Assembly (NCBI GenBank): GCA_964016885.1
Contig: OZ024746.1
Coordinates: 86,862,001-86,926,000 of the forward strand
Origin: Eledone cirrhosa
Taxonomy: Eukaryota
Reading direction: 5' to 3'
Length of the DNA: 64,000 nt
Shown here: piece by piece, positions 17,119 to 62,904 of the stretch
Numbering within the stretch: the stretch's first letter is position 1
Layout of the letters: the number at the start of each line of letters is the position of its first letter
Position numbers and translations under genes: made by a program
The notes under the pieces: generated by a model
Database searches by the model: none
What the model saw: only the letters and a program-made list of their open reading frames with translations
What the model was told of the DNA's origin: nothing

Positions 17119-17155
<37 letters not shown>

Positions 17156-17186
17156 AGATCAAAAGATGGTTAAAGGAGTTCAATAT

Positions 17187-17255
17187 ATTTTATTATGCGC
17201 ATTTCAAAAACAAACATCATCAAACAATAATATTTGTGTTTTCATCAGATAAAAC
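17187..17255 (-). ncRNA. Canonical minimal hammerhead ribozyme (mirror of 17383-17451)
   Basis: Exact reverse complement within the palindrome. Confidence 0.85.
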
Positions 17256-17382
17256 AGGAGAACATGATATGAAGGCTAAAAAAAACACTTGTTGATAGTG
17301 CAGTTTTAAATCAACATATCAAGTTGATTTAAAACTGCACTATCAACAAGTGTTTTTTTTAGCCTTCATATCATGTTCTCCT

Positions 17383-17451
17383 GTTTTATCTGATGAAAAC
17401 ACAAATATTATTGTTTGATGATGTTTGTTTTTGAAATGCGCATAATAAAAT
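17383..17451 (+). ncRNA. Canonical minimal hammerhead ribozyme
   Basis: Stem I gttttat/ataaaat, CTGATGA, stem II acaaatattatt/gatgatgtttgt (G-U rich), GAAA-tgcgc-ATA with palindromic stem III atgcgcat. Confidence 0.85.
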
Positions 17452-17603
17452 ATATTGAACTCCTTTAACCATCTTTTGATCTTATATTATGCATACTCCA
17501 GTCCCACAAACTGTAGAGTGCTTCTTATCCGATATCTGCATTGCTTTATTGTACTACAATAAAACTCACCTCCTACATATATATATATATATATATATAT
17601 AAT

Positions 17604-22796: not shown

Positions 22797-23410
22797 AATT
22801 ATCAGGCTAAAATTCCTTTAGTCAAAAATACGGTGAAAGCTATTCTATTTTCTAATTTCAAACCTACTCACTGTTTCAAAACATACTTACTTGCCATTTA
22901 AACTCGCTAAGAATGTAGCTTCTAATTTGAATGGAAAGAGATGGGTGATGTGTTGATGTAATGGTAGCACAGTGGTCGCGATAACCAAAGATGTTGGTTC
23001 GACTCCCATGTACGTCAATACTCATCTTTTTCCATTTATCTGAGGGTTCTAAACCCTATTATCAGGCTAAAATTCCTTTAGACAAAACTACGGTGAAAGC
23101 TATTCTATTTTCTAATTTCAAACCTGCTCACTGTTTCAAAAATACTTACTTGCCATTTAAACTCGCTAAGAATGTAGCTTCTAATTTGAATGGAAAGAGA
23201 TGGGTGATGTGTTGGTGTAATGGTAGCACAGTGGTCGCGATAACCAAAGATGTGGGTTCGACTCCCATGTACGTCAATACTAATCTTTTTCAATTTATCT
23301 GAGGGTTCTAAACCCCATTATCAGGCTAAAATTTCTTTAGTCAAAAATACGGTGAAAGCTATTCTATTTTCTAATTTCAAACCTGCTCACTTTCAAAACA
23401 TACTTACTTT
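22797..23410 (+). repeat. Tandem 259-bp unit (about 2.4 copies) containing a tRNA-like sequence
   Basis: ttatcaggctaaaatt recurs at ~22799, ~23059 and ~23318. Confidence 0.9.
23206..23276 (+). pseudogene. tRNA-like cloverleaf with Pol III A/B boxes (second copy at 22947-23017)
   Basis: A box tggtgtaatgg, D stem gtgt/gcac, anticodon stem tggt-cgcgata-acca (no U33), B box ggttcgactcc, G-U-rich acceptor stem. Confidence 0.75.
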
Positions 23411-27299: not shown

Positions 27300-27399
27300 T
27301 ATATATATATATATATATTCATTGAGCCACACCGTGAAAGGTAGCCACACTCATATATGTATCTGTGACTATGTCTAAATATATACATATATCCCTATG

Positions 27400-30429: not shown

Positions 30430-31570
30430 GGGTGTTGTTGTTATTCCATTCATTCTTTCTGTTTAGTCTTGGCCTTCTAAGTTCTATTTCACTGGCCTCT
30501 CTGATTTGCCTATCTGCTGGGTCATTTCTATGTTTAGATATTATTCTAATTTCTATGTTGTCTATGTTACCGTCGTGTTGTTGTCTGGCATGTTCGTATA
30601 GTACTGACCCGTTTTTTCGTCGTTTAGTTCCCCCAGTGTTGGTCTATCCTTTCACCTATGCTACGAGCTGTCTCGTCTATGTATGTTGTTGTCATGTTTC
30701 TGCAAGTACCCTCTGTACATCTTATGCTATAGACTACGTTTCTAGTTTTACAGTTTATCCGGGCGTTTACCTTACATATGATACATTCCCTATTAGTACA
30801 GTAGGTTTTCTTAAAAGGGTAGATTTTGCTGATCAGGGATTGTATGGTGGTTCCTGGCATTTCTACCACCTTAATCTTTAAGTGGGTCTTTCTCAGGGCC
30901 TTTCTACACTGATTAGCTAATTTCCCTCCAGGGGCAGCGTCCACAAAGATGACACTCTGGTATCTCTGGTTGTCGTACCATGAGGTGGCTTTCCCTATCT
31001 TATGTCTAGCCCTATCTAAGCTATTCCGTGATTTGCTCCTGTATAATGGGCAAATTCCTTTCATGTCCAGTTCTATGAGGGTCTTATACTTCTCCATGGC
31101 TCCTTCGTATACTCTGACTCTGTCTCTTTGGTTGTAGCCAGAGAACTGCATGCGGTTGATGAAGTGTTGGATGTGTCTTTCCATTTCTGTTGGGTCGCAC
31201 ATGCGGGACACATTCTTCATCACTCATACCAAATCTGCGATCAGAATATTAAACTTAGCACTACTGGACATTGCTGAGTTTTTGAGTATCAGGTATTTGG
31301 AGACCATGGGTTTAGCATAGTGTGAGTGGAGAATTTGGGCTCTCTCGTCTATAGTGTTAATCCAGAGTTCCGTGTCTAATACAGGTAGTCTATTGTTAGG
31401 GTGTTTGGAAGGGATTAATTCATTTTTTATGTTTAGCCTTAGCCTTCTAAGTTCTATTTCGCTGGCGTCTCTGATTTGCCTATCTGCTGGGTCATTTCTA
31501 TGTTTAGATATTATTCTAATTTCTATGTTGTCTATGTTACGTTGTGTTGTTGTCTGGCATGTTCAGTACT
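30430..31570 (-). mobile_element. Penelope-like element relic (RT thumb, linker, GIY-YIG), Naiad-like, with upstream partial tandem copy of its 3' end
   Basis: LPVLDTELWI..HSHYAKPMVSKYLILKNSAMSSSAKFNILIADLV*VMKNVS; CTNRECIICK...NCKTRNVVYSIRCTEGTC...YIDETARSIGERIDQH; 30446-30602 duplicated at 31415-31570. Confidence 0.85.
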
Positions 31571-31585
31571 ATACGAACACATGTA

Positions 31586-31647
31586 TTTTATCTGACGAGG
31601 AGGTACTGAAAAAACAACCACGTACCTTCAAGAAATATATAATAAAA
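31586..31647 (+). ncRNA. Hammerhead ribozyme (2-nt insertion before GAAA)
   Basis: ttttat CTGACGA ggaggtac...gtaccttc aa GAAA tat ATA ataaaa. Confidence 0.7.
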
Positions 31648-39093: not shown

Positions 39094-39167
<74 letters not shown>

Positions 39168-39173
<6 letters not shown>

Positions 39174-39823
39174 TAAAGTATCTCCATAGAATCATTTGAT
39201 AATATATATATACCATTTCCTCTCCCAATTAGCATAATTAACCACACATAAAATCAATTAGACCAGGCTATAAGATTAAAGGCTCATATGAAGAAATATT
39301 TGATAAATAAACGACTTTGTTTAGTTTGTGTATATGTAAATCTTTATATTTAATAATGTTTCCTGACGAGTTCGAAACTCGAGATTTTATCCTTAATAGG
39401 ATATCTCAAAGCGAACGAAACCCAAGGGTAGAGACATAATCATGGTAAGAGTGTACGCATTTCTTCTAACTTTAATTTTATACCTAATTGTGTATGGTTG
39501 ACGATATATTTAGTCGATTTCTACATGCTGTTGAAATGTTGGGTAAATATTCTATTGCGGTCGGCCGGGAAGAGGCTACTGGCGTTTATTTATCAAATAT
39601 TTCTTCATAGGAGCCCCTGGTCTAATTGATTCTTTTGTCTAATTGATTTTTTTTAATGCTAATTGGCAGAGGAAATGGTGTATATATATTATCAATGATT
39701 CTATGGACATACTTTATGATATATTGCTCTGATTATTTAATTTATTAATTCTTCATTGAGCCACATCGTGAATGGTTGCCACATATATATCTGTGACTTT
39801 GTTTAGTTTGTGTATATGTAAAT

Positions 39824-39830
<7 letters not shown>
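39168..39830 (+). mobile_element. HHR-bearing ~482-nt monomer with terminal direct repeat and 5' inverted segment, flanked by (TA)n
   Basis: gactttgtttagtttgtgtatatgtaaatctttata at 39313 and 39795; 39168-39313 is an inverted copy of 39583-39724. Confidence 0.85.
39356..39437 (+). ncRNA. Canonical hammerhead ribozyme
   Basis: Stem I atgtttc/gagacat (7 bp), CTGACGA, stem II gttcg/cgaac with inner hairpin tatcct-taat-aggata, GAAAC-cc-aa-gg-GTA. Confidence 0.9.
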
Positions 39831-39871
<41 letters not shown>

Positions 39872-62797: not shown

Positions 62798-62904
62798 GTA
62801 TTGACGTACACGGGACACGAACCTACATCTTTGGTTTGCCGGACCAATGTGTTACCATTACACAAAAACCCCACCCCTGCTTCCTTCCATTCAATTAGAA
62901 GCTA
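62798..62904 (-). pseudogene. tRNA-like sequence of the same family as the 23-kb tandem unit
   Basis: Minus strand: tagcttctaattgaatggaa...gtgtaatggtaacacattggtccggcaaaccaaagatgtaggttcgtgtcccgtgtacgtcaatac. Confidence 0.75.

Follow-up and report, generated by a model that had tools for sequence, protein, structure and literature searches.

A short insertion between two TA tracts in the Eledone cirrhosa genome raises the question of what kind of element could leave a hammerhead ribozyme motif, a terminal direct repeat and an inverted 5' end at a single place. The insertion lies in the 64,000-nt stretch of DNA that was analysed as a whole (hereafter the window, to which all positions refer). 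An earlier note on this DNA had regarded it as a permuted copy of a 482-nt hammerhead monomer, reverse transcribed from a circular or multimeric RNA primed in a TA tract and completed by a fold-back template switch. The locus is a damaged, partly deleted copy of a large protein-free family whose RNA is predicted to cut itself. We consider it quite probable that this is a deleted copy of an ORF-less hammerhead non-LTR retrozyme with a unit of about 673 nt, made of two fixed-end arms in (TA)n and likely written by the borrowed RT/GIY-YIG enzyme of a Penelope-like element (PLE).

Layout of the insertion and its 482-nt spacing

The insertion consists of two arms joined head to head, and its outer boundaries correspond to two sites of the family unit, S1 and S2. 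On the left lies a (TA)n target tract (39095-39171), of which about the last 6 nt also belong to the inverted arm, at its S1 end. This arm (39166-39313, minus strand) covers unit positions 422-571, is 94% identical to the natural unit L003 and has the fixed site S1, the untailed end, as its outer end. The junction of the two arms falls at 39313, where one G is shared in pairwise alignments. The direct arm, on the plus strand, starts 5'-truncated at 39313-39356 with unit positions 642-673 followed by positions 1-12 of the next unit, a segment that holds a 36-nt repeat. At 39356/39357 unit positions 13-195 are gone, a 183-nt deletion with 1-nt microhomology at its junction. The body of the direct arm (39357-39826) covers positions 196-673 with 2.8% substitutions relative to the nearest fetched copies. 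It reads through S1 (unit 571, at 39724), which is the commonest 3' end of the family, and continues in a 102-nt tail from S1 to S2 (39725-39830), which ends at S2 and merges with the right (TA)n target tract (39827-39868).

The repeat and the inversion reported earlier are largely present. Positions 39313-39348 recur exactly at 39795-39830, at an offset of 482 nt and against (TA)n (E = 1e-13). The segment 39166-39313 is an inverted match to 39583-39724 (E = 2e-36), although it is not an exact copy (125 of 156 columns, with 22 gaps); outside the rearranged stretch, the two arms differ in 4 of 97 columns.

On the other hand, the 482-nt spacing, which had been taken as the length of the monomer, proved to be a peculiarity of this copy. 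Of 16 spacings measured in the family, 12 give a unit length of 671-682 nt, and 482 nt was encountered once, in the window copy (393, 594 and 637 nt are likewise single instances). Mapped on L003, a natural full unit of 673 nt, the window copy reads 642-673 and 1-12 and then jumps to 196-673; a 24-letter pattern across the deletion junction has a single match in the genome, namely the window copy itself. Since the 183-nt loss is unique to this copy, 482 nt is not the length of the monomer. A true 482-nt circular monomer, permuted at random, is therefore extremely improbable: the spacing itself is real, and the sequence folded as a circle is predicted to keep the hammerhead, but besides the single occurrence of the junction, no other top-scoring copy (40 of 4754 candidates were scored) aligns over it, and contigs of three sequencing runs of unrecorded kind (X1-X3, one sample) carry the missing family sequence as loose ends flanking 39357 on both sides. 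When aligned to the element, these contigs represent mostly paralogous copies, and no listed contig covers the whole stretch. The 482-nt variant is thus refuted as a family, while a one-off deleted RNA template may have existed. Similarly, the 36-nt redundancy is not a meaningful feature of the element, as the 5' starts of 70 hammerhead-anchored copies are scattered across the whole unit. It marks the place where the long arm stops by 5' truncation, just inside the previous unit.

A protein-free family and its hammerhead

A search of the species' own genome yielded 4754 first-look candidates, 40 of which were scored; the best copies are 85-92% identical, and these other copies align to the window query from position 45 or later, never from position 1. 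Two family motifs have 704 and 322 exact matches in the genome, compared with 1 and 0 for the controls. The family thus comprises hundreds of copies at least. Its unit of about 673 nt has a GC content of 36.6% and contains no protein ORF, the longest frame being 59 aa from an ATG and 81 aa from stop to stop, and a tblastn comparison of two PLE proteins with the window returned nothing at E<=1e-5. The window copy has a single hammerhead, and tandem copies with at least two complete hammerheads were found at L009, L029 and L164. A young sister family, 70% identical and with a 690-nt unit, includes a trimer (L202). Moreover, at least four sister lineages of the unit were observed at 70-78% identity (L101:2101-3507, L110:1404-2212, L111:5789-6994 and L130), indicating that the ORF-less unit has long persisted and diversified.

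An intron-like GT...AG stretch (positions 286-469 of the L003 unit, about 39446-39612 in the window) occupies the same position in two families that are 70% identical. It is 184 nt long in this family and 179 nt in the sister family, and its acceptor has been lost from the direct arm of the window copy. An exact pattern for the spliced junction had 0 matches, which is uninformative because PLE copies retain introns.

The hammerhead of the window copy (39356-39437, plus strand) is of type I. Its core is formed by CTGACGA (39363-39369), GAAA (39417-39420) and GTA (39428-39430), with a stem I of 7 bp (39356-39362/39431-39437), a long stem II of 47 nt (39370-39416) and a stem III of 3 bp (39420-39429). 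The minimum free energy (MFE) fold gives the three-way junction, and self-cleavage after A39430 is predicted from this fold. The description of the motif as canonical was only partly upheld, as the type I hammerhead is present but the Rfam hammerhead families gave no match at the gathering score or at E<=10. Across 23 sequences of this and sister families, the core is conserved and 99.3% of the positions in proximal stem I can pair, 2 of the pairs being compensatory, whereas pairing in distal stem I and inner stem II is weaker (about 70%); kinship among the sequences inflates such scores. The distal half of stem I, present in family copies, had one strand removed by the deletion in the window copy, whose ribozyme is therefore predicted to be weaker. 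In the sister family, the MFE structure of the hammerhead is not the active shape.

Several other features were observed in the window. At 27318-27377, between microsatellites, there is a short and diverged piece of the tail region of a related family. A loose motif scan marked minimal hammerhead-like candidate cores at 31592 (plus), 44283, 62455 and 63705 (all minus). A 199-aa open frame at 30627-31223 (minus) has the appearance of a retroelement-protein-like fragment, and two weak tRNA-like matches at 23206-23276 (plus) and 62802-62872 (minus) are possibly SINE heads.

Copy ends and the pairing of arms

The ends of the family were mapped in the first 70 of 322 listed matches to the hammerhead motif, which served as the anchor of each copy. 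At the 3' side, 59 copies end at S1 (unit 564-572), 3 at S2 (670-673) and 8 elsewhere. The two sites are 102 nt apart, lie 300 and 402 nt downstream of the cleavage site and both end in TATAT. Several expectations of the earlier note were borne out by this map. Ends lie away from the cleavage site, with just 2 of 70 copies having any end within 10 nt of it, and the TA setting recurs, the 3' flank adjoining TA in 55 of 70. The unit junction is crossed in 39 of 70 copies and one unit is exceeded in 28, so the template must have been multimeric or circular, as had been proposed. Free permutation, however, does not agree with the concentration of 3' ends at one main and one minor site. The mapping of copy ends that the note had suggested therefore gave a divided answer: the 3' ends are fixed, contrary to its expectation, and the 5' ends are variable, in keeping with it.

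A pooled set of 126 distinct insertions was obtained from three samples after dropping duplicates, edge-cut copies and clusters under 80%. Among the 91 single-arm insertions, 76 end at S1, 6 at S2 and 9 at other positions. The remaining 35 are head-to-head insertions, of which 25 combine S1 with S2 and 10 have one other end; S1/S1 and S2/S2 pairs number 0 each. The sister family gave a similar result (17 of 22 S1+S2, again with 0 S1/S1 and 0 S2/S2). Both flanks are TA-like in 23 of 25 two-arm insertions, although target-site duplications are unreadable inside TA tracts. The sister-family sample, like two of the three family samples, was chosen on S2-containing sequence, which biases against S1/S1 but does not force the absence of S2/S2. 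In the unbiased sample, 4 of 8 inversions are clearly S1+S2 and 4 have one imprecise end; the direct arm ends at S1 in 5 inversions, in which the inverted arm ends at 673, 673, 673, 639 and 545, none of them S1. The window copy is a regular S1+S2 two-arm insertion in a TA microsatellite.

These features suggest a route in which a PLE-like enzyme would cut both strands of a TA tract and both DNA ends would then serve as primers inside the element RNA, one starting reverse transcription at S1 and the other at S2, as a rule on RNA of a single lineage. The resulting cDNAs would stop at variable points and join head to head via little or no microhomology. The template RNA could be multimeric or circular, the two being about equally probable. 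At the window locus, the S2 arm would have run for 705 unit positions, of which 183 nt were either skipped or lost afterwards, and would have stopped 32 nt into the previous unit, leaving the 36-nt repeat, and the S1 arm would have run for 150 nt.

Under the fold-back switch to which the earlier note had attributed the inversion, an S2-primed cDNA would fold back and copy itself, and either the endonuclease or annealing of TATAT would resolve the product at S1; a self-priming model has been proposed for PLEs (in the available part of PMC3846280). Formally, 34 of 42 two-arm insertions are compatible with fold-back, and 31 of the 42 have their S1 arm contained in the S2 arm (window copy included in both counts), but containment is inflated because the samples were picked for long S2 arms. 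Near-symmetric junctions, with inner ends within 15 nt, make up 7 of 57, and fold-back may act in some insertions; a perfect palindromic junction is found in another hammerhead element of the window (17150-17580). However, self-priming requires one arm to lie inside the other, and in 8 of the 42 neither arm is contained, so it is not the sole mechanism. As a general source of inversions it is further contradicted by the outer end of the inverted arm, which is the main 3' start site and, on its own, the commonest 3' end of single-arm copies. In L191 and L189, lineage markers distinguish one arm from the other. In the window copy, alignment of the arms shows that the inverted one retains a 13-nt stretch missing from the direct arm (which later deletion could explain) and is free of the duplication present there. 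Fold-back is therefore unlikely to account for the pattern, and independent priming of the two arms at S1 and S2 is preferred.

The nature of the template was approached through lineage markers. In the sister family, 52 of 1643 comparisons differ within loci versus 20506 of 52589 between loci; units within an insertion thus nearly always share markers, which fits one template or one homogeneous source. A circle test identified 18 locus-private markers common to all units and 33 recurring differences between units of one insertion, some of the latter being alignment noise near positions 226-230. Not every insertion can be derived from a single monomeric circle, since the markers are mixed in L191, L208, L189 and L209. 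RNA reads spanning the unit junction would look alike for a circle and for a tandem transcript, as this junction also exists in the tandems of the genome. A more specific model, which we offer tentatively as possible, is that a dimeric Penelope enzyme copied one retrozyme RNA circle into both ends of the TA break simultaneously, starting at two fixed sites of the same molecule that are separated by 102 nt. If this were true, the strict pairing of tailed and untailed arms would preserve in the genome an intermediate of PLE integration, and the ORF-less hammerhead circle would represent a minimal PLE substrate.

Penelope-like elements and retrozymes

Autonomous PLEs are abundant in the same genome, in which 10,596 GIY-YIG candidates were counted. 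Many near-identical intact frames of about 900 aa belong to a young family observed at L118:934-4091 (minus) and also at L143-L157. This family has RVT_1 and GIY-YIG domains in a 3158-nt unit, a 40-nt tail, TA flanks and a minimal hammerhead. In 15 hand-picked stretches (three near-identical loci being counted once), both ends could be seen in 8 distinct two-arm insertions, every one of which combines one tailed and one untailed arm, and the young PLE thus shows the same insertion anatomy as the hammerhead family. It is a natural candidate enzyme for in vitro work.

The unit could alternatively be the terminal repeat of a yet-unfound autonomous PLE, with the copies representing its 5'-truncated ends. 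The anatomy is indeed that of PLE ends, and the hammerhead and the conserved intron-like stretch resemble PLE terminal repeats. However, the 39 of 70 copies that cross the unit junction pass from unit end to unit start directly with no ORF between, dimers and trimers of the bare unit exist, and RT/endonuclease ORFs near copies are set apart by TA tracts or unrelated sequence, which makes this explanation very unlikely. Apparent ORF linkage at L101, L110, L111 and L027 was ascribed to independent insertions within or close to TA tracts. No homologous terminal repeat occurred in 50 GIY-YIG loci, which are few of the over 10,000 candidates, and none of 30 compared PLE 3' ends resembled S1 or S2. 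The terminal region of the young PLE matches the unit no better than shuffles (64 of 300 score as high), and high z-scores of L069 and L071 in the PLE-partner comparison were discounted as TA/TG-repeat matches.

The different hammerhead element at 17150-17580 has cores at 17248 (minus) and 17390 (plus). Its two arms, flanked by TA tracts, meet head to head in a near-perfect palindrome, and one of them is longer than the other by about 90 nt. Its hammerhead also occurs near PLE ORFs in L096 and L102.

The best reading of the hammerhead family is that it belongs to a known kind, the non-LTR retrozymes or non-autonomous PLE-type elements (comparisons below refer to the available parts of the cited accounts). 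Metazoan non-LTR retrozymes are ORF-less tandem repeats with type I hammerheads, for which PLEs have been proposed as mobilisers (Cervera and de la Pena 2020, PMC7229834; Li, Clavereau and Pollet 2026, bioRxiv 10.64898/2026.07.22.740005). As in both accounts, the units are ORF-less, low in GC (<45%) and arranged head to tail with one type I hammerhead each, and thousands of dispersed copies co-exist with autonomous PLEs. The unit of 673 nt is above the 170-400 nt given in PMC7229834 and within the 51-972 bp given in the bioRxiv account. The family differs from the described retrozymes in the 47-nt length of its stem II, and a PLE terminal repeat homologous to it was not found. The two fixed ends and head-to-head arms of this family have no description in the available parts of these two accounts, and strict pairing of tailed and untailed arms in retrozymes was absent from the titles and abstracts of the openly accessible literature searched.

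Insertions of EN+ PLEs form partial tandems next to which a 5'-truncated copy lies in inverse orientation; they occur at (TA)n targets and carry a tail of 30-40 bp, in many cases at a single end (Craig et al. 2021, PMC8557442; Arkhipova et al. 2013, PMC3846280). The hammerhead family shares the 5'-truncated partial tandems, the adjacent inverted copy, the one-end tail and the (TA)n bias, but has no RT/GIY-YIG ORF and a longer tail (102 nt, and about 119 nt in the sister family). Hammerheads also occur in PLE terminal repeats, some as opposite-strand pairs 100-700 bp apart (PMC4209133). Non-autonomous Chlamys elements such as MRC1 are likewise PLE-type and form multicopy head-to-tail insertions; their 3' end generally resembles that of an autonomous family (PMC8557442), whereas no such partner was found for the hammerhead family. 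Moreover, the purified Poseidon enzyme PAc of Anolis cuts and extends both strands in vitro and starts at two internal RNA sites (Frangieh et al. 2024, PMC11167929). The two systems have in common two start sites downstream of the hammerhead, AT-rich targets and ends off the ribozyme cut, which in our case are read from genome copies. They differ in that PAc is autonomous and its start sites are without target homology, while S1 and S2 end in TATAT.

So far, the proposal that PLEs mobilise animal retrozymes has been based on their co-occurrence and on homology between terminal repeats, and has left the mechanism open. In the present genome, the footprint of the ORF-less hammerhead family matches that of an autonomous PLE, each of the two arms having its own fixed 3' end in a TA tract. 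The family also supplies a 673-nt substrate and two predicted start positions that are testable in a published assay format. Although its importance is modest, the insertion footprint of this family is a useful clue to how retrozymes are mobilised by PLE enzymes.
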